From: a virus
Lineage: Duplodnaviria; Caudoviricetes
Length of the DNA: 64,000 bases
Virus record (IMG/VR): IMGVR_UViG_3300031998_000024
Span: 59,872-123,871 of that record
Reading direction: 5' to 3' (one strand)
Part shown: positions 21,069 through 60,189 of the stretch, in pieces
How the letters are laid out: each line of letters starts with the position of its first letter
Numbering within the stretch: the first letter of the stretch is position 1
The notes under the pieces: model-generated
Databases searched by the model: none
What the model was told of the DNA's origin: nothing
What the model saw: the letters and a program-made list of their open reading frames with translations, nothing else
Made by a program: the position numbers and the translations under genes

Positions 21069-22277
21069 ATGATTGAAAAGAATTTAGAAGTTTTTGAGCC
21101 TGAAAATGGGTTTGTTCAAACAGAGAATTTTGCTAAACAGTATCCAAGAATTAACAATTTTATTCTCAATAACCAAGATGGTTGGGATGAAAGTCGTGAT
21201 GGTAAGGTTAGAGAAATTTTGGATTTCAAAACAACGCTGCTTAATCCTTATAAAAGGATGGTTGGTGGACAAAAAAGAAACATTAATGTGTTTTTTCTAC
21301 TTGCTGAAGCGATGTGGATTTTTGCGGGTCATAAGGATGTTTCGTTTCTCACAGCATTCAATAAAAAGATGGGCGATTTTTCGGATGACGGTAATGTATT
21401 CCACGCGCCATACGGATTCCGTTTGCGTCACTGGGGAGTTCGTTCTGAAGACAAATTCGTTGAAGAAAATATGCACATTGCTCAAGGGTATGACCAAATT
21501 TCTGATGCGGTAAAGATTTTTCAAAATAATCCTAATAGCCGTCAGGTTGTTCTTGCTATTTGGAATCCTGATTTTGACCTTGGTACTATTACTAAGGATA
21601 TTCCGTGCAACGATATTGTTATAATGAAAATCCGTAATGGTAAACTTTATACAACTGTTCAGAATCGTAGTAATGATTTACATTGGGGATTGCCTACTAA
21701 TATTTTCCAGTTTGGATTTTTGAGCGAGATTTTGGCTAATGTTCTTGGTGTTACTCTTGGAACGCAAACACATAATTCTCATAGCCTACATATTTATGAT
21801 TGGAATCAGATAGCGTTTACAATGCAATCTGAATACGAAAGCGGTAATCAAACAACGCTTTATGAAATTCCTAATATAGTCGCTATTCCAATGGATATTG
21901 ATTTCGATAATCAGATTGCTGGAAATAGATTGAGGGAGGTTGATATTATGATTGAAAGAATTATATCAAACCTTACCAAAATAATTAATGGCGTAGAGCC
22001 TAATGAAGAGGAGGTAGCAGATACGATTAGTAAGTCAAAATGGTTTACTTGCGTTTATAGGATGCTTGAAATTTATTTGAATTACAAAAAGGATATTGCT
22101 AAGGATTTCAGTGCTGAAGAAAAGAAGGATTGCGCTAAATTTGCCTTGGATTCTATTTACAGCGTTCTTATAAGTAAAGAAATGGAAAATTGGGATATTG
22201 GTACATTAGCGGTTAATTTCTTTGCTCATAGAATAGGCGATGAACCAAAACCAGAAATTTTAATTGGTAAGTTATGA
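21069..22277 (+). CDS. thymidylate-synthase homolog, probable dUMP hydroxymethylase
   Basis: ESRDG, NVFFLLAEAMWIFAG, FSDDG..APYGFR, KDIPCN, NRSNDLHWGLPTN, HSLHIY. Confidence 0.8.
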   Translation: MIEKNLEVFEPENGFVQTENFAKQYPRINNFILNNQDGWDESRDGKVREILDFKTTLLNPYKRMVGGQKRNINVFFLLAEAMWIFAGHKDVSFLTAFNKKMGDFSDDGNVFHAPYGFRLRHWGVRSEDKFVEENMHIAQGYDQISDAVKIFQNNPNSRQVVLAIWNPDFDLGTITKDIPCNDIVIMKIRNGKLYTTVQNRSNDLHWGLPTNIFQFGFLSEILANVLGVTLGTQTHNSHSLHIYDWNQIAFTMQSEYESGNQTTLYEIPNIVAIPMDIDFDNQIAGNRLREVDIMIERIISNLTKIINGVEPNEEEVADTISKSKWFTCVYRMLEIYLNYKKDIAKDFSAEEKKDCAKFALDSIYSVLISKEMENWDIGTLAVNFFAHRIGDEPKPEILIGKL

Positions 22278-23950
22278 TTGACGAAAATCTCAGAAATTGG
22301 GTTTCAGATAACAAAATGATAATATCGGAGTCATCGCAAGGCGATTCCGATATTATTTTGATTGATGGTGTAGGTAAGTTTCTTTATATACATCCATTTG
22401 GCGGTAATATTATTGATGAAGATTTCGGGTTTATAATGTCGGATGAAGAATTTGAATTATGCGACAATAAACAGGTTGATTATATACTATTTGAATTTGG
22501 TGGTAAGTTTTATTATTCACCGCTGAAAGAAGATAGGAGTAAGTACAACGAAATAATTTATAAACCTGAATTCAATGATTTCAAATATCTTGGTAAGTGT
22601 TCTGAAGATTTAGTTATGCCGTTTGTTCATCTTGGTGTTCACGATGAGTATGAGATGATGAATGGTAGCGGTAATGCTAAATTATGGGCTCAAAAGGCTG
22701 CTTTTTTAGGATATAAGGCTTTGGGACTTTCTGATTGTAATACCTTAGCAGGAACACTTGCGTTTCAGGAGGCTTGCGATAAATATAAATTACAACCAGT
22801 TATTGGTGAAACCGTAATTGTTGCTAAAAATTATAATCCCGATAGTTCGGTGATGCCTGAAACATTTGAATTGAAGTTATTCGTTACTAATGATGTCGGT
22901 TGGAAAAATCTTTTATTTATTAGCAAGGAAATAAATGTGAAATACAAGGGTTTTATTCCCGATGAAATACTTTTCCAATACGCTGATGGATTAGTGGCAG
23001 TAATACCACCCGCAAGTCTTTTTAACAACATTAGTAGTGATATAGATTCTACTAATAAATTGATAAAGTTGTATAAGAAACATTTTGTCGATTTATATTA
23101 TCAAATTGATACAGTTGAATACAATTCTAAAACGCTTTTCAAGAAACATCTTTCAGCAATAGATAGATATTTATGCAATTATCGTAAAAAGATAAAGCCG
23201 ATTGTTATTAATGATTCTTATTATCTTGATGCGGAAGAACATGAATTAAAATCTATGTTGAATAAAATTACTGGTAAGGTTAATGCTGAATCTGAAGACC
23301 AGTATTTCAAAAGCGTTGGAGATACGCTTGCTTCATATGACGATTGGTTTGATGATGTAGAGCCTTTATTTGATGCTATTATTGTCGGTATAGAAAACAC
23401 AAATAAATTAGCAGAACAATGTAATTTCCGTATCAACAATTCAGATAGAAAAATCCCTAAGTTTGAAGTTGATGACCCTGAAGCGTTTTTCTTTGATGTT
23501 CTTCAAAAGGGTATAAATGACAAGTTAGTTGGCAAGATTCCTGAAAAGGATATGGAGCAATATATGAAAAGAATAGAGTTTGAATGTTCAATCATTGTTC
23601 CTAATGATTTGTGTTCATATTTACTTATTCTTTGGGATATTATTCAGTGGTGTAAATCTGAGGGATATATGGTTGGTCCAGGTCGTGGTTCTGTTTGTGG
23701 TTCGTTAGTAGCGTATTGTATGGACATTACTCAAGTTGACCCTATTCCGAATGGTTTGTATTTTGAAAGATTTTTGAATATTGCTCGTATAGCAGCACAC
23801 CATAGTTATACATTAACAATGGAAGATGGTTCTGAGTATAAGTTTAATGATGGTGACCGTGTTCCGATAGTTGGCGGAGGTTTTGTTGAAGTTTCTAAGG
23901 AAACGAATTGGGATGATTTAGATATTGATGTTAAGGCAATAGTTTTATAA
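22274..23950 (+). CDS. dnaE: DNA polymerase III alpha, N-terminal half (PHP + start of palm)
   Basis: FVHLGVHDEY, NDSYY, GPGRGSVCGSLVAY, LYFERFLN. Confidence 0.95.
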   Translation: MIDENLRNWVSDNKMIISESSQGDSDIILIDGVGKFLYIHPFGGNIIDEDFGFIMSDEEFELCDNKQVDYILFEFGGKFYYSPLKEDRSKYNEIIYKPEFNDFKYLGKCSEDLVMPFVHLGVHDEYEMMNGSGNAKLWAQKAAFLGYKALGLSDCNTLAGTLAFQEACDKYKLQPVIGETVIVAKNYNPDSSVMPETFELKLFVTNDVGWKNLLFISKEINVKYKGFIPDEILFQYADGLVAVIPPASLFNNISSDIDSTNKLIKLYKKHFVDLYYQIDTVEYNSKTLFKKHLSAIDRYLCNYRKKIKPIVINDSYYLDAEEHELKSMLNKITGKVNAESEDQYFKSVGDTLASYDDWFDDVEPLFDAIIVGIENTNKLAEQCNFRINNSDRKIPKFEVDDPEAFFFDVLQKGINDKLVGKIPEKDMEQYMKRIEFECSIIVPNDLCSYLLILWDIIQWCKSEGYMVGPGRGSVCGSLVAYCMDITQVDPIPNGLYFERFLNIARIAAHHSYTLTMEDGSEYKFNDGDRVPIVGGGFVEVSKETNWDDLDIDVKAIVL

Positions 23951-23961
23951 ACATATTTATC

Positions 23962-24693
23962 ATGAATTTTACTTGTTTTAATATGGAGTGGGAGCCTACC
24001 ATGGAAGGTGGTAGGTTAATACACACAAAACAACCTTGGATGTGGTATGACGCAAGTCAAATTTGGGTTAGTGAAAATGAAATGAAGTTATGGGTTGAGA
24101 AGAAACCTAATACAATACATCATTGGGATGGTAAAACATATAATCCGAAAATTGCGGTTGGAATAGCGAGGTCTGTGAAAACATTCCTTCGCGGTAACTT
24201 TTCAGCAGAAATAATGATGCCAAGCGGTAAAAATCTATGGCCATCGTTTTGGTTAGTTGGAGCAGATAAAGATTGGCCATTATGCGGTGAAATAGATATT
24301 GTAGAATCATGGAGTAATCGTTGCAGTAGTTATTTTAGATTCACTATTCCACAGCCTCCGTATTTAGTGCCATCGTGGAAAACTACTACAAATGTGCATT
24401 GGTCTGAGAATGGTGAATATAAATATACTGGTTCACGGAGTTTGCCGTTAATATTTTCTTTGAAGAATCCAAGTAATACATTTGTTAAATACGAATTGAT
24501 TTGGGAATCGGATAGAATTTTGTTTTTAGTTGATGGTAAAACAATTCGTTGTTATGGTTATGATGTAGCGAAACATTTGAGTAATTCACTGCAGAGAGTT
24601 ATTTTCAATAATTGGGTTCAAGGTGAAGATTGTTCGTTAAAACAACCAATGATTATACGGAATTTTAAATATGAACCATTAGTATGTATTTGA
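23962..24693 (+). CDS. glycoside hydrolase family 16
   Basis: LWPSFWLVG..WPLCGEIDIVE (ExDxxE), YELIW..ILFLVDG. Confidence 0.85.
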   Translation: MNFTCFNMEWEPTMEGGRLIHTKQPWMWYDASQIWVSENEMKLWVEKKPNTIHHWDGKTYNPKIAVGIARSVKTFLRGNFSAEIMMPSGKNLWPSFWLVGADKDWPLCGEIDIVESWSNRCSSYFRFTIPQPPYLVPSWKTTTNVHWSENGEYKYTGSRSLPLIFSLKNPSNTFVKYELIWESDRILFLVDGKTIRCYGYDVAKHLSNSLQRVIFNNWVQGEDCSLKQPMIIRNFKYEPLVCI

Positions 24694-24694
24694 T

Positions 24695-26776
24695 ATGAAA
24701 GTTAGGTCTGTAAAGGTTAAAAAATTCTATCAAGATACACCCGATATAGATGTCGATTTTGAGCCAGTTGCTCGTGACGCTGTGAAGGATTATATTGTTC
24801 GCAAATACGGAAGTGCTTGGTCTTGTAGTGTATCTACTTACACACGTGTGAAGTTGAAAACCGCCATAAAGGATTTTGGTAAGGTTGAGGGATTGCCGTT
24901 TGATTTGACCAATAAGGTTACAAAGGATATTGATGACCAAATTGAATACACTTGGGGTGATTTAATAGAATTTGGTTCAAGGTCTAAAACGCTTTATAAA
25001 TTCATTCAGGAAAATCCTGAAATAATACATTTGACCAAATATGCTTTGATGATACCGAAGGCTGAAAGTATTCACCCTTCTGCTTATATAATAGTACCTA
25101 AACAAAATTCAGATGGAGAGAAAACCGATATTTTCAATCTAATGCCTATGAAGGAAATTGATGGGCTTTTAGTTTGTGAATGGGAGGGTAAGTACACTGA
25201 AAGTTCTTTGTTCTTGAAAGAGGATATTTTAGGACTATCTCAATTGACTAAGATACACAACATCATGAAGTTAATTGAGAAACATTATGGCACAAAAATA
25301 GATGTTACGCAAATTCCGTTTGACGACAAAGAGGTTTTTAAGTTCTTCAAAAGAGGATGGTGTGAAGATGTATTTCAGTTCGGAACAACTGGTTTGATGG
25401 GTTATTGTCGTCAGGTTAAACCAAGTCAATTATCGGATTTAATTGCTATGACCGCTTTATTCAGACCTGGTCCAATGGAGAGTAACGCTCATCAAGATTT
25501 TGCCGATATTAAGAATGGAAGGAAAAAACCTAAATACGATTATGGTATTCAAAATATAACAGAGGAAACATATTCACTTTTGGTGTACCAAGAGCAAATG
25601 ATGTCTATCATTCACCAGTTAGGAGGGTTATCGCTTATTGATGCTGAAAATGCGAGAAAATACATCAAGAAAAAGGCTCATAAGGAATTGAATGAGTTGG
25701 GTGATAGATTTATAGCAGGTGCTATTAGCAATGGATGTCCTGAAAAAGAGGCTAAGAAGATTTGGGATAAGATGAACGCTTTTAGTTCTTACAGTTTCAA
25801 TAAGAGTCATGCTGCTGCTTATAGTTATATTTCATATTGGTCAATGTGGTTTAAGGTTAATTATCCGCTTGAATTTTGGACTGTTTCTTTGAGCGAAAGT
25901 AAGGAAACTGAAATACCATATAGATTAGCTGAAATGAAAAAGGCTGGAGTTGAGGTTGAAGTAAGACCGCCTGATGTTAATTATTCAACCGATTATTTCA
26001 CTTGTGACCCCAAGGAGCAACGAATATTCTTCAGTTTGAATAAGATTAAGGGTGTTGGTGATGTAGCGGTTGCTTCATTATTGAAAGAGCGTAACGAACA
26101 TGGTCAGTTTTTTGATTTCGATGAGTTTCTTTCAAGAGTTCCTGGTAAGGTGAATAAGACTGTTATCAAGGGTTTGATAGTTGGCGGAGCGTTTGATTTA
26201 TTGTGTGATATAAAACAACCGCGTGATAGAAAGAAATTATTAGAGCGTTATTTGATTGATATCAAAAAAGATTCTGAACTACCTGAGCCGTATAATTCAC
26301 CCGATTCTTTGACTAATGCATTTTGGATTCAAGAGCAAAAGCGTTTGACTGGTTTTGGTGAAATTGATTACGAAAACTATATAAAGGATTTGATTCCAAA
26401 TAAGCGGTTTGTAAGTCTTTATGTAGATGAAAACGAATTTGAAAGAGTTCCTGAAAAGAAGGAGGTTGTACTGGCTGGTAAGTTTTTGTTTTATCGTGAA
26501 AGTAATACTAAGAATGGTGTTATGGGTACAATACAACTTGATTGTAATAATACCATTATTAATTGCACTATTTGGCCTGATATTTGGCAACTTTATAGGG
26601 AAGAAATTGAAGATTACAAGGGTAGGATAATAGCATTAAACGGATTCGCTCAGAAGGACAAGTTCAGAAATGAAAAGCGTTTATTTTCAAATGATAGAAC
26701 AAAAATTTATGTTATTAGTGAGAGTAAGACAGCGTTAAATAGATTACAAGAATGGCGTAATTCAAAAAAGATTTAA
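24695..26776 (+). CDS. dnaE: DNA polymerase III alpha, C-terminal half
   Basis: PDIDVDF, KEDILGL, VFQF, ALFRPGP, VYQEQ, FNKSHA, PPDVN, IKGVG, OB fold. Confidence 0.95.
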   Translation: MKVRSVKVKKFYQDTPDIDVDFEPVARDAVKDYIVRKYGSAWSCSVSTYTRVKLKTAIKDFGKVEGLPFDLTNKVTKDIDDQIEYTWGDLIEFGSRSKTLYKFIQENPEIIHLTKYALMIPKAESIHPSAYIIVPKQNSDGEKTDIFNLMPMKEIDGLLVCEWEGKYTESSLFLKEDILGLSQLTKIHNIMKLIEKHYGTKIDVTQIPFDDKEVFKFFKRGWCEDVFQFGTTGLMGYCRQVKPSQLSDLIAMTALFRPGPMESNAHQDFADIKNGRKKPKYDYGIQNITEETYSLLVYQEQMMSIIHQLGGLSLIDAENARKYIKKKAHKELNELGDRFIAGAISNGCPEKEAKKIWDKMNAFSSYSFNKSHAAAYSYISYWSMWFKVNYPLEFWTVSLSESKETEIPYRLAEMKKAGVEVEVRPPDVNYSTDYFTCDPKEQRIFFSLNKIKGVGDVAVASLLKERNEHGQFFDFDEFLSRVPGKVNKTVIKGLIVGGAFDLLCDIKQPRDRKKLLERYLIDIKKDSELPEPYNSPDSLTNAFWIQEQKRLTGFGEIDYENYIKDLIPNKRFVSLYVDENEFERVPEKKEVVLAGKFLFYRESNTKNGVMGTIQLDCNNTIINCTIWPDIWQLYREEIEDYKGRIIALNGFAQKDKFRNEKRLFSNDRTKIYVISESKTALNRLQEWRNSKKI

Positions 26777-26780
26777 TATT

Positions 26781-27434
26781 ATGATTGAAAAAATTGTAAA
26801 TGGTAGTTATCTAAAAAGGATTGATAACATTATTCAGTGGCAGGAGCGCGATGTGTTTAACAAAGAGAGTGTTTCTCAGCATTCGTACAAAGTGAGCGTT
26901 TTTGTTAGGATTTTATTGGAAGATATTTTCAATAATCCTGATTGTAGCAAGAATTTTGAAATTCAAAATTTCAAATTAGATTGCGTAACTCATGCGATGT
27001 TTCATGATTGGGATGAGGCGATTTTTATGCGTGATTTATCTCATGCAATTAAGTATAATGATTTCAACGGCAATCAAATTCGTCAGGTTATTGATGATTA
27101 TGTGAAACACGAATTTGTAAAAGAGTTCGATACCTATCAGGATACATGCGCTTATAAAGTGTTAGCACCAGCGGTAGTTTGTTTGAATCCTTGCGTTAAA
27201 AAGGTTGTTAAGTTAGGAGATTGGCTTGCTTTACTTTTTTATTGCAGAAGGGAAATAGCATTAGAAAATGCGAATTTTGAAAAAACATATATGTATTGCC
27301 GCCACAGTGTTATTAAAGCAGCGCAAGATGTTGTTGAAGTTATAGACCAAAGATTTGGTATTGATGCGAGTAATTTAATTGAAACTATACAAACAATTCT
27401 AAAAAGTTCTGTTTATGGAGAAAATGACTATTGA
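26781..27434 (+). CDS. HD-domain 5'-deoxynucleotidase (YfbR-like)
   Basis: ESVSQHSY, MFHDWDE..RDL, VVKLGD. Confidence 0.8.
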   Translation: MIEKIVNGSYLKRIDNIIQWQERDVFNKESVSQHSYKVSVFVRILLEDIFNNPDCSKNFEIQNFKLDCVTHAMFHDWDEAIFMRDLSHAIKYNDFNGNQIRQVIDDYVKHEFVKEFDTYQDTCAYKVLAPAVVCLNPCVKKVVKLGDWLALLFYCRREIALENANFEKTYMYCRHSVIKAAQDVVEVIDQRFGIDASNLIETIQTILKSSVYGENDY

Positions 27435-54647: not shown

Positions 54648-57600
54648 ATGCTTGGTGAATTAGAAACATACAAAAGAAGTCCGTTACACAAAGCAGAGTG
54701 TCTAAGAATTGTTGATGAGATTATAGACGGATTGGATGAGCGTGGTATCAACGAGATAATGGAAGGTACTGAGCTGGATATTGATAGAATGATTGATATA
54801 ATGCTTGAGGAAACCTTCTGTGTTATCTTTACTGGTCAGCGTGAAATAGACTTTGCTCCACACTATACAGAGCGTTTATCAGAGAGTATAGAAGAAACGC
54901 TAAGGGTAAATAATTTGACTTATTTCATTACAAGTGTTTTACCCGATTTTCAGTTTGGTTGGCATCATATTGAGTGGGGTGACTTAGTGATGCACTATAA
55001 GAAGTTGTGTGTTGAGGCTGCTCGTGGTCACGGAAAATCTTGGTATTTTAGCAACGCTTATATCATTTGGCAGTTGTATAGATATAAGAGGTCAAAGACG
55101 ATGCAATTCAGCATGAGACCAACGCGAAGCAATAGCAATCGTGGTTTTTTGTTTTCGTTTTCACTGCAACAAAGTGTTGACCTTATAGAGATTTTGAAGG
55201 GTACGATTGAAAGCAACGATACATTAGCAGAAAGACTAATGCCTCAAAATACCAAAGAGGGTGCTTGGGCGTCAACTAATATAACTTGTAGAAATGGAGC
55301 GCGTTTGACTGGTAAGGGTTTTGGTTCGTCTGTTCGTGGTGCTCACCCTTATTTTATTGTTGTTGATGACGGGTTAAAAGATAATGTAATTTATTCAAGC
55401 CTACAAAGACAAAAGAGCATTGATTATTTTCATTCGGTAATCATGAATATGATTATTCCTGGCGGGCAAACAATCGTTGTCGGTTGCGTTTCACCTTACA
55501 CTATTGTATTATCTGATAAAAGAGGTTTTATCAGAATGAGAAGTGTTAAGTATAATTACATAGAGGATAAGAAAAAAGTTGTAAAACACGTTGAAAAGTT
55601 TTTAGATAAGAATGGATTTTCTCAAACGTCGCATTATTTTTATAATGGCGTAGGAGACATGCTCAGAATCACTTTACAAGGCGGTTTTGAGTTAGAGTGC
55701 AGTAAAATACATCCGTTATGGAAGATGTTTGAAAACGGAATACCAGGCTGGCAAAAATCAGCTGAGTTGAAGATTGGTGATTATATCGCTATAAAACCAA
55801 CTGAAATTGAATCATTTGGAATGCCTGTTGAGCTAAAATCTTTTATAAGTTCTTATAAAAGGAAAAAGAATCGAAATTATAATGAGCAGAATTTGAAATT
55901 ACCATTATATTTAGATGAAGATTTGGCGTATTTTATTGGACTTTGGATTGCAGAAGGTACAATTTACAAAAATGGAAGTGGAATTGAAATGTCCACTGGC
56001 GATTCTGAGATTGAAGATTTTTTGAAATCTTTGATAAAATATAATATTAATTTTAGAGGAAATGGAAGATTTGATAAAAGTTATGCTTATTCGTGTACGA
56101 ATAAGAGATTACATGCGTTTTTCATTTGGTTGGGTTTTGATTGCCCTTGTTATTGTAATATAAAGAATATTCCCGATAAATTATTATCAGCGCCAAAGAA
56201 TATTTTAAAACAAATAATTTCAGGAATATTTGATGGCGATGGACATGTAGATGAAAGTGATGGTAAAATAGGAGTTGTATTATCATCTACATCCCTTGGT
56301 TTAATTAAAACAGTGCAAAATGTTTTATTAATGGGATGGGGGATAATTTCAACTTATAGTTATGTAAAAGCGGAAAGTATTAATGCAAGCGGAAAGAATA
56401 ACACTCACGTTAATTATGACCAATACAGTTTGGTTATAATAGGTCATAATGCGATTAAATTCGGTAAGGAAATCGGATTTAAATTAAGTAGAAAGCAATT
56501 GCGCATTGAAAAGCATTTCAGCGACAAATTTAATCTTAACAATTCTAATTTTTATAATATTCCTCATCAAGCTGGTCTGTATAAAAATGCTGAAAATAAA
56601 CGTTTAGCAAATAAAATAACGTATAGAGATAAAGAGGGGTATGGGAATTTTATAGATTCTGCTTATTCTATTAAAAAAGCTAAAACTATAAATAAATTCG
56701 TATTGAAAAAGGTTTGCGAATTTATGAAAAAGATAACAAATAGCAATGATTATGACCAATTGCTTAAAAATTGTGAAGAAGATGTTATTTGGAGGAGAAT
56801 TGTTAAAATTGAAAAATTTCAAGGAAGTTCTTGCGATTTTGTAATTCCGTCAACGCATTCTTTTATAACCAACGGAATTGTTTCGCATAACACACCATTT
56901 CACGCTCAAGACCTTTATGGAGATTTGAAAACCAAGAAGGGGTGGTTTGTAATAGAATATCCTGCTATATTTCCTGATGGAAGGATTCTTTGGCCTCAAA
57001 GATTCTCATATCAAACGCTTATGGATATGCGTAACACGCAGGGAAATATCATATTTAGCCGTGAAAATCTTTGCCGCCCAATTGTGTCAGATGCTTCTAT
57101 ATTCTCCTTTGATATTTTACGCAACAGCCTTATACGCATGGAAATTTATTGCTTAGTGCGTAGTAGGGATGATTTTCCGAAAAAGTTTGATAAGGTTGTT
57201 GTTGGAGCCGACTTTGCTATATCATCTGCCGTTGGAGCCGACTATTATTGCTATACTGTGTTTGGCGTTGGAGAGGATGGCGGAATGTGGTTGCTTTGGA
57301 TAGAGATTGGTAAGGGGCGAAAGTATGATGAGCAGTTGCAGATTCTAAGAGGAATCAATGCGCGTTTTAGACCTGATGTAATGGTGTTTGAAGCGAATGT
57401 ATTCCAACAGATATTTTCAGATGGCGCGCAAGATTATGGAATGCCTGTTGTTTCGCATACAACGGGTACGGAGAAAAATGACTTATCAAAAGGTTGGGTT
57501 GCATTAGCAACGATGTTTGAAAGAGGAATGTTCCACATACCAGTTGGCGATGATTATAGTCAAAGAATAAAGGATATGATTTTTGACCAGTTAGGTTCAG

Positions 57601-57722
57601 TTGCATTTACTGACCATGGTTTACAGTCGGTTGGTTCGCACGATGATATTTGTAGTAGTATGTGGCTTGCTACTTTGGGTAGGAATTTGCAACGCACTGG
57701 CAGTAAATTTATGTTTTTGTAG
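54648..57722 (+). CDS. terL: terminase large subunit (intein-containing)
   Basis: AARGHGKS, VRGAHP..VVDD, VG|TP, GADFA, FEANVFQ, HDDIC. Confidence 0.92.
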   Translation: MLGELETYKRSPLHKAECLRIVDEIIDGLDERGINEIMEGTELDIDRMIDIMLEETFCVIFTGQREIDFAPHYTERLSESIEETLRVNNLTYFITSVLPDFQFGWHHIEWGDLVMHYKKLCVEAARGHGKSWYFSNAYIIWQLYRYKRSKTMQFSMRPTRSNSNRGFLFSFSLQQSVDLIEILKGTIESNDTLAERLMPQNTKEGAWASTNITCRNGARLTGKGFGSSVRGAHPYFIVVDDGLKDNVIYSSLQRQKSIDYFHSVIMNMIIPGGQTIVVGCVSPYTIVLSDKRGFIRMRSVKYNYIEDKKKVVKHVEKFLDKNGFSQTSHYFYNGVGDMLRITLQGGFELECSKIHPLWKMFENGIPGWQKSAELKIGDYIAIKPTEIESFGMPVELKSFISSYKRKKNRNYNEQNLKLPLYLDEDLAYFIGLWIAEGTIYKNGSGIEMSTGDSEIEDFLKSLIKYNINFRGNGRFDKSYAYSCTNKRLHAFFIWLGFDCPCYCNIKNIPDKLLSAPKNILKQIISGIFDGDGHVDESDGKIGVVLSSTSLGLIKTVQNVLLMGWGIISTYSYVKAESINASGKNNTHVNYDQYSLVIIGHNAIKFGKEIGFKLSRKQLRIEKHFSDKFNLNNSNFYNIPHQAGLYKNAENKRLANKITYRDKEGYGNFIDSAYSIKKAKTINKFVLKKVCEFMKKITNSNDYDQLLKNCEEDVIWRRIVKIEKFQGSSCDFVIPSTHSFITNGIVSHNTPFHAQDLYGDLKTKKGWFVIEYPAIFPDGRILWPQRFSYQTLMDMRNTQGNIIFSRENLCRPIVSDASIFSFDILRNSLIRMEIYCLVRSRDDFPKKFDKVVVGADFAISSAVGADYYCYTVFGVGEDGGMWLLWIEIGKGRKYDEQLQILRGINARFRPDVMVFEANVFQQIFSDGAQDYGMPVVSHTTGTEKNDLSKGWVALATMFERGMFHIPVGDDYSQRIKDMIFDQLGSVAFTDHGLQSVGSHDDICSSMWLATLGRNLQRTGSKFMFL
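55485..56891 (+). mobile_element. intein with LAGLIDADG homing endonuclease (469 aa)
   Basis: G|CVSPYT start, CSKIHP block B, FIGLWIAEG and ISGIFDGDG, GIVSHN|T end. Confidence 0.95.
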
Positions 57723-59811: not shown

Positions 59812-60189
59812 ATGGCAGACAGAATACAAATTAGACGCGACAAAGCGTATGTTTGGGCGTCAGTTAATCCCATGTTGGCGGATGGAGAATTAGGTTATGA
59901 AGTTGAAACAAATCATTGTAAACTTGGTGATGGTTTTACTCGTTGGAATGATTTGAAGTACACCGATGCCTCAAAGGCAGATTACACTACAGTATTATCA
60001 AAAAACATGTTTAATCCAGCTGATTGCGTAGTTGGTAAGCGTTTAGCGTATCGTGGAACAACTGGTTAGCCTTATGTTGTTGATAGTGAAAATTTGATGA
60101 TTTCATGATTGATTAAGGTTGAGCCTGGTGAGATTTACTATTATGGTGATTATCTACTAAATTACCCTAAAAAATTGCGTCAAACCTAA
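59812..60189 (+). pseudogene. decayed tail-fibre/receptor-binding gene (Mtd_N-like N-terminus)
   Basis: IQIRRD..W..NPMLADGELGYE..KLGDG..WNDL; in-frame TAG and TGA, then IKVEPGEIYY. Confidence 0.7.

Follow-up and report, generated by a model that had tools for sequence, protein, structure and literature searches.

A mobile cassette splits a phage replicative polymerase beside its catalytic aspartates and probably leaves a non-splicing clasp of intein origin

The DNA studied here, called the window, is a stretch of 64,000 nucleotides (nt) from the Caudoviricetes virus record IMGVR_UViG_3300031998_000024 (positions 59,872 to 123,871) and makes up the second half of that record, which is complete (123,871 bp) and carries direct terminal repeats. 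In the window, DnaE, the alpha subunit of DNA polymerase III, is carried by two co-oriented genes (22274-23950 and 24695-26776), as shown by the listing of open reading frames (ORFs) and by Pfam. On balance, we favour the reading that a composite mobile cassette fractured the sole replicative polymerase just upstream of the PDIDVDF motif, that the protein tails brought in by the cassette reassemble the two halves, and that these tails together make up an intein-derived domain. Judged from predicted structures, the tails are probably a non-splicing clasp of intein origin. The following features are used throughout.

22274..23950, plus strand: N half of DnaE, 558 amino acids (aa), with an N-terminal extension, the PHP domain, the first part of the palm up to FERFLN and an acidic tail.
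23789..23947, plus strand: N tail, 53 aa, net charge -7, comprising 4-5 beta strands of the insert domain, the last being the acidic strand LDIDV.
23962..24693, plus strand: GH16 glycoside hydrolase gene, 243 aa, occupying the 744-nt gap between the DnaE halves.
24695..26776, plus strand: C half of DnaE, 693 aa, with the remaining palm, the thumb, the fingers and HhH.
24695..24739, plus strand: C head, 15 aa, net charge +4; its basic strand, of the MKVxSVKVKK type, is predicted to pair with the last strand of the tail.
24740..24760, plus strand: PDIDVDF catalytic strand with the two metal-binding palm aspartates, from the ORF and Pfam.

The N half matches PF02811 (PHP, 4e-14) and positions 2-99 of PF07733 (DNA_pol3_alpha, 5e-30), and the C half matches positions 99-260 of PF07733 together with PF17657 (finger domain, 1e-45) and PF14579 (HHH_6, 2.5e-20). 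Since the N half ends and the C half begins at position 99 of PF07733, the break is located at a single profile position, between FERFLN and PDIDVDF. PHP, the palm with PDxDxDF, the fingers and HhH were all found across the two halves, which identifies the pair as DnaE. The GS-type nucleotide-binding loop is on one polypeptide and the metal-binding aspartates are on the other. The break had been described in the same place, and with correctly quoted tail and head sequences, by a first-pass annotation made from the sequence alone, which had also rightly stated that the cyanobacterial split site is intact: FNKSH is uninterrupted within the C half. In the window the two halves share one reading frame, and no terminator-like site was found between the halves and the gap gene. 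Neither a family A nor a family B polymerase (PolA, PolB) was found in the complete genome of 123.9 kb, and the split DnaE is therefore the sole polymerase found.

The recurrent split is neither private to this phage nor accidental. A word-based search yielded about 93 clusters of N halves of 550-564 aa, every one with a homologous tail at its end. In total, 83 loci were classified, comprising the window, the cultured Cellulophaga phage phiST and IMG/VR relatives. The polymerase is split at this point in 34 of them, far above chance, and unsplit with a plain loop of 13 residues between FERFLNxxR and PD in 43. Four further loci are unsplit with an insert, and two are unclassified (L023 and L024, with 55% identity and a match to query residue 553, in which the pattern used detected no FERFLN-type motif). 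In phiST the same split separates gp044 and gp045, of which the stop and start are 1 nt apart and which have a related tail and head. Where the halves abut in relatives, they do so by ATGA overlaps, TAAATG or 1-nt gaps, with varying relative frames (0, +1, -1); on sequence grounds, such junctions are typical of translational coupling. Unsplit relatives with the same insert, which the first-pass annotation had proposed to align, do exist: L064/L080, L078 and L087 carry it in frame. These forms came from the locus survey, as a search for longer proteins with tail words returned no unsplit relatives, and scans with L087 and L078 gave nothing useful by way of additional contiguous forms. In one locus (L075, 1511-1520) the C half is broken again by overlapping frames about 100 aa past its start, which may be a frameshift or an assembly error.

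In most gapped relatives, the gap contains a gene of 190-320 aa for a free-standing GIY-YIG/NUMOD3 homing endonuclease, or the remnant of one; gaps of 64 and 116 nt still code for the endonuclease C terminus. A free-standing endonuclease between co-oriented halves was seen in L004, L017, L019, L033, L055-L068, L079, L081 and L086. The proteins have an N-terminal GIY-YIG motif of the GIIYK type, NUMOD3 repeats and a common C-terminal motif. NUMOD3 scored above the cut-off in 5 of the 7 endonucleases scanned and just under it in L055 and L086 (17.1 and 19.9 vs 20.4 bits), and the GIY-YIG and SegE_GIY-YIG scores were just under their cut-offs (E 3e-5 to 7e-3).

The borders of the cassette are defined by a pair of closely related alleles. 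The split L068 and the unsplit L076 are 96.9% identical up to the FERFLNxxR codons and again 96.5% identical from exactly the PD codon, while the DNA between these flanks measures 962 nt in L068 (tail, endonuclease and head) and 37 nt in L076 (plain loop). As the two alleles differ by tail, endonuclease and head as one block, the tail and the head are part of the mobile cassette. A maximum likelihood tree of the N-terminal 480 aa (quick search, support by the Shimodaira-Hasegawa-like approximate likelihood ratio test, SH-aLRT) contains one tight clade with branch lengths of 0-0.015 in which unsplit plain-loop alleles are mixed with split, endonuclease-bearing alleles. An indel of a single block is what cleavage of the plain allele by the endonuclease should produce, provided that all non-homologous sequence is copied during repair. 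In L066 (6064-6990), a related GIY-YIG endonuclease fractures DnaE at a second site, about 340 aa downstream of PD. This locus is unsplit at the first site; at the second there are short tails only and no Hint-like insert, and the first 318 nt of the endonuclease gene are 84.6% identical to the site-1 gene.

The N tail has no counterpart in uninterrupted alleles. In the contiguous proteins the tail runs straight into the head through a tight turn, and it is at this turn that the split forms are cut; tail and head together measure about 65 aa. A codon analysis of the window's clade gave median ratios of non-synonymous to synonymous substitution rates (dN/dS) of 0.28 (tail) and 0.34 (head), compared to 0.21 for the upstream and 0.08 for the downstream flank. 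With values around 0.3, both segments are under purifying selection; they are protein and not intron. The acidic N/basic C charge pattern that had been noted for the window extends to its relatives: tails have a mean net charge of -4.8 and are negative in 22 of 24 cases (-7 in the window), and head starts, taken as the first 12 residues, have a mean of +2.6 and are positive in 23 of 24 (+5 in the window). An alternating strand of the LDIDV type closes the tail, and a strand of the KVKxVKVK type opens the head. Three contiguous forms are nearly neutral. Of these, L064 appears to be re-fused, because it is sister to the endonuclease-bearing L017 with 98% support, and it has lost the alternating charges. 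Although these are very few cases, they fit an electrostatic pairing that is selected only when the chain is broken. The last strand of the tail (23917-23931, aromatic-x-x-LDIDV) resembles the catalytic aromatic-x-D-x-PDIDV (24740-24760), and MAFFT aligned the two together. In real inteins, the block F motif VYDVEV is found at the same relative position as this strand; ancestry or a likeness in strand chemistry are both possible.

The residues needed for splicing are missing, as had been claimed, both in the window and as conserved positions in the relatives. The first tail residue varies (S, A, T, N, K and others) and neither tail nor head of the relatives contains a conserved Cys, so that no N-terminal nucleophile was found. 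At the position of the block B TxxH, the aligned residues read N..D, R..D, P..T and the like, and T..H in none. At the end of the head there is a D, and the residue between it and PD is T, V, L, M, S or Q; no terminal His-Asn and nucleophile is present. By its sequence, the tail/head domain is non-splicing.

It could still be argued that the halves are joined in some other way, or that they are not used at all. Under non-canonical protein trans-splicing, the halves would be covalently linked and a contiguous polymerase would be the active form. The Hint-like predicted fold would suit this, as would the Ser at the start of the window's tail and the Asp-Thr at the end of its head, given that rare inteins end in Asp. 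We regard it as very improbable, as the candidate junction residues vary across relatives, blocks A and G and TxxH are missing, the domain has about 65 aa vs at least 125 aa in known mini-inteins, and natural contiguous forms retain the insert in the mature reading frame. Removal or bridging of the interruption at the level of RNA or translation, by a group I intron, ribosomal bypassing or a frameshift, would agree with the shared frame of the halves in the window and with the frequent interruption of phage genes by endonuclease-bearing introns. Such bridging is extremely improbable: tail and head evolve as protein, the relative frames vary among relatives with junctions of the coupling type, and the contiguous forms translate the insert. 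Rfam scans of window positions 22000-27000 and of six related loci returned nothing relevant in the way of introns. The view of the first-pass annotation that the halves are separate genes is upheld, with no joining signal at the RNA or protein level and no match to an intron model. Decay of the split gene into a pseudogene, in a phage relying on the polymerase of its host, is highly improbable as well, since both halves are full length with intact motifs and are under purifying selection, the split form is kept across at least 93 clusters and in cultured phiST, and the complete genome holds no other polymerase.

The joined domain was folded in two forms: the natural contiguous insert of L064 (82 aa) and the read-through of the in-frame TAAATG junction of the split L075 (88 aa). 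In the alignment used for folding, the tail rows were trimmed, keeping LDIDV out of the catalytic PDxDxD columns. Both AlphaFold models have five strands, with a predicted local distance difference test (pLDDT) of 68 for L064 and 56 for L075. When compared to 48,161 representative chains with VIA-align, the top 15 and top 13 matches of the two models were all inteins or Hint domains (Z 3.6-6.4). These included PI-PfuI (Z 6.0 and 5.6), gp41-1 (5.8 and 6.4), KlbA (4.8 and 5.2), the Hedgehog Hint domain (3.9) and the PolII mini-intein (5.5 and 5.9, with a root-mean-square deviation of 2.0-2.1 over 53-58 residues). In a Foldseek search of the PDB, inteins made up 6 of the top 7 matches, but with E of at least 0.19. 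In a viral structure library, several large terminases and two proteins named intein C-terminal splicing regions were near the top. The aligned span corresponds to intein residues ~35-50 to ~105-120, that is, from block B to the start of the C-terminal piece (IntC) only. Residues 47-99 of the N-terminal piece (IntN, 102 residues) of the Npu intein align with model residues 7-61. Because this alignment ends at the break, the natural break matches the canonical split-intein site, which is also the site at which endonuclease domains are inserted.

Several observations weigh against an intein-derived clasp moved by an endonuclease. The two models were built from the same shallow alignment (36 rows), are not independent and have modest confidence; the VIA-align Z scores are under the range of 7-8 described as common by the tool; the domain covers only about half of a Hint fold; and the window has no endonuclease. 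Pfam searches of tails and inserts gave no Hint family and only noise (DUF1344, Tudor_2), and the best match of a PDB profile search was a KDM4 Tudor domain (E 0.02), with the gp41-1 intein only at E 0.48. Using hhalign, we obtained P 0.03 (probability 1.6%) against the canonical DnaE intein of a related phage, though the block B region was aligned, and P 0.16 (probability 0.4%) against the intein in the terminase gene of the window. PF14890, searched on the genome with E up to 10, matches the terminase intein alone, and Hint sequence-profile searches do detect that intein. An exhaustive profile search of 1.84 billion representatives returned no intein; beyond N-half fragments, its matches were long multi-repeat proteins with many short matching stretches, which we read as generic beta-hairpin repeats.

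The proposal of the first-pass annotation that the tails resemble Hint strands and form an intein relic therefore stands in part. The predicted structures do resemble the middle of a Hint fold with the break at the split-intein site, and the domain is non-splicing. The sequence and profile tests were all negative, the comparison to Hint domains it had suggested gave the intein-rich Foldseek list at weak E values next to the two low hhalign results, and ancestry is not established by models with a pLDDT of 68 and 56 and Z of at most 6.4. As Z stays under the distinctive level and the models are not independent, we rate Hint ancestry of the tail/head domain, modelled as it is, as somewhat probable.

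The alternative that deserves most attention accepts the same cassette genetics and denies the intein. The tail/head domain would then be a small, unrelated beta domain (SH3- or Tudor-like), or else sequence that was picked up along with the endonuclease and selected for charge complementarity, and the Hint likeness would be convergent or a modelling artefact. This would explain why every Hint sequence and profile test is negative and why Tudor domains are the best sequence matches, and it sits easily with Z of at most 6.4 and pLDDT of 56-68; moreover, assembly tails can work without demonstrated intein ancestry (Crona et al., PMC3045599). What speaks against it is that the best 13-15 of 48,161 chains were exclusively inteins and Hint domains in two models, that Foldseek and the viral library also rank inteins first, and that the break coincides with the canonical site of intein splitting and endonuclease insertion. 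In addition, the cassette resembles inteins in its location at a catalytic motif and in its movement with a homing endonuclease, and canonical inteins are present in the same gene family and genome. A non-intein origin is possible but, in our view, unlikely.

Under the favoured reading of an intein-derived clasp, the complete cassette would consist of three parts: about 160 nt in frame with the N half, encoding the acidic tail; the free-standing GIY-YIG/NUMOD3 endonuclease gene; and the head, about 45-50 nt in frame with the C half, which begins with an ATG of its own and in most cases is translationally coupled. Alleles without the interruption (the RVSGERAKSADSMPD coding region) are presumably cut by the endonuclease, and repair would copy the entire heterologous block, so that the endonuclease carries both tail and head along. 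These two segments would belong to a single small beta domain that is cut in a hairpin turn. Once translated, the tail would pair through its acidic last strand with the basic first strand of the head and so complete the domain, which would hold the polymerase halves together without a peptide bond and render the insertion phenotypically neutral. The domain most likely derives from a mini-intein from which the first ~45 and the last ~20 residues, including every splicing residue, have disappeared. In the lineage of the window, the endonuclease would have been lost and its slot re-used, by GH16 here and by a methyltransferase or a decaying endonuclease in the closest relatives, with an empty slot in others. 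To the full proposal, a truncated dead split intein kept as a portable non-covalent staple that moves with a free-standing GIY-YIG homing endonuclease, we give roughly even chances.

The slot between the halves has a varied content in the relatives of the window. The nearest ones (81% identity in the N part) form one well-supported clade with it, and the content differs in each: the slot is empty in L012, holds a frame-broken endonuclease in L004/L010 and a methyltransferase in L011, and contains the GH16 gene in the window. In L011 (2807-3652), the closest relative of the window, the gene between the DnaE halves encodes an adenine methyltransferase of the EcoRI type (PF13651, 6e-81). The GH16 gene begins 11 nt past the stop of the N half and stops 1 nt short of the ATG of the C half, and thereby takes the place where relatives have the GIY-YIG homing endonuclease, which the window itself lacks. 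Its product matches PF00722 (1.5e-13, 51 bits vs a cut-off of 22) and keeps the catalytic motif ExDxxE as EIDIVE. GH16 relatives of equal length and 58-62% identity are frequent in metagenomes and match PF00722 and PF26113 (GH16_XgeA). Some are found on contigs of ~55-100 kb with neighbours of phage-like appearance, where they are placed among methyltransferase and DUF551-type accessory genes and not between DnaE halves. Only three distant GH16 matches (25-29% identity) were found in deposited phage genomes, both near-full-length ones in phage records of ~640 kb. Since its relatives sit among accessory genes elsewhere, the GH16 gene is a floating accessory gene, one that settled in the slot left empty by the endonuclease. 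The first-pass annotation had mentioned neither this gene, nor the endonuclease cassette to which the tails belong, nor the presence/absence polymorphism, nor the precedents described in PMC2677866 and PMC3045599.

Upstream of the split DnaE is a gene of 402 aa that resembles thymidylate synthase (21069-22277; PF00303, 6.5e-25), and downstream is a YfbR-like 5'-deoxynucleotidase gene (26781-27434; PF12917, 4.6e-17). This suggests a module for the nucleotide pool or for base modification. Two canonical inteins were also observed. The large terminase ORF of the window (54648-57722, 1024 aa) contains one at about 55485-56891, running from Cys1 to SHN before a T, with a LAGLIDADG-type region; it matches PF14890 at 2.4e-6 and 8.7e-4, under the family cut-off. 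The DnaE gene of L082 (7078-~7950) has a canonical HNH-containing intein between GFNK and SH, with Cys1, TSNH, VYDVEV and a final CN before S. The intein at this site is also present in L066 and probably in L057 and L063; the site is that of the cyanobacterial split intein and is uninterrupted in the window.

If true, the staple would give selfish elements a third means, next to RNA and protein splicing, of rendering an insertion into an essential active site harmless, and the staple-flanked slot, once fixed, would be a landing pad for unrelated cargo such as GH16 or a methyltransferase. It would link two phenomena that have been described separately, namely genes fractured by active split inteins and genes fragmented by endonucleases with assembly tails. 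It would also give concrete support to the published speculation that assembly tails are intein remnants. At the level of populations, the alleles show that the peptide segments which heal the break belong to the mobile element itself. Furthermore, the arrangement suggests that a cut beside the catalytic aspartates is compatible with function in a replicative polymerase, which would work as a non-covalent heterodimer. A clasp of about 65 aa (~50 + 15 aa, with a charge zipper) could be a small splice-free tag for protein complementation. As the same split is present in cultured phiST, the idea is testable.

Three known systems can be compared to the split DnaE of the window; no paper describing this DnaE case was found in the literature. 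In the fractured genes of Dassa et al. 2009 (PMC2677866), as here, an essential replication gene (DnaE among them) is broken into adjacent halves on one strand, a free-standing endonuclease of the GIY-YIG type lies between the halves, and the halves abut once the endonuclease is lost. Both systems have an acidic N piece and a basic C piece, and the break is where intein endonuclease domains insert. The three DnaE sites of that study differ among themselves as well as from the cyanobacterial site. The pieces there have 88-105 and 33-54 aa, contain all five catalytic residues and splice, whereas those of the present case have ~50 and 15 aa and no catalytic residue, for which reason the halves must stay non-covalent. 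The Npu/Ssp split DnaE intein shares the host enzyme family, the acidic IntN and basic IntC and the break at the same fold position. It differs in its site before FNKSH, in having its halves at separate loci, and in being catalytically complete and splicing.

The closest parallel in logic is the NrdA of phage Aeh1 (Crona et al. 2011, PMC3045599), in which a free-standing homing endonuclease, mobE, fragments an essential enzyme at its active site. The NrdA tails are unique, oppositely charged, inherited with the mobE insertion and needed for function, and Crona et al. raised a degenerate split intein as their possible origin. Likewise, the DnaE tails have no counterpart in uninterrupted alleles, travel with the insertion and bear opposite charges, and the single-block indel between L068 and L076 matches what Crona et al. 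proposed for the insertion of mobE in Aeh1 nrdA. The enzyme is a different one, however, and the endonuclease is HNH in Aeh1 and GIY-YIG here. In NrdA the basic tail is on the N side and the acidic one on the C side, which is the reverse of the order in DnaE. In addition, the Aeh1 tails serve the dimerisation of heterodimers, whereas those of DnaE form a defined beta domain with contiguous versions and a predicted Hint-like fold, and direct population evidence is available here for tail, endonuclease and head as one indel. The arrangement corresponds to that of Dassa et al. 2009 (PMC2677866) minus the working intein, and the logic that of the Aeh1 NrdA tails (PMC3045599). New are the host enzyme and the site, with the DnaE insertion positions of Dassa et al. 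outside this comparison, and the defined domain with natural contiguous versions. Also new are the predicted partial Hint fold cut at the canonical site, the single indel and the re-use of the slot by unrelated genes.

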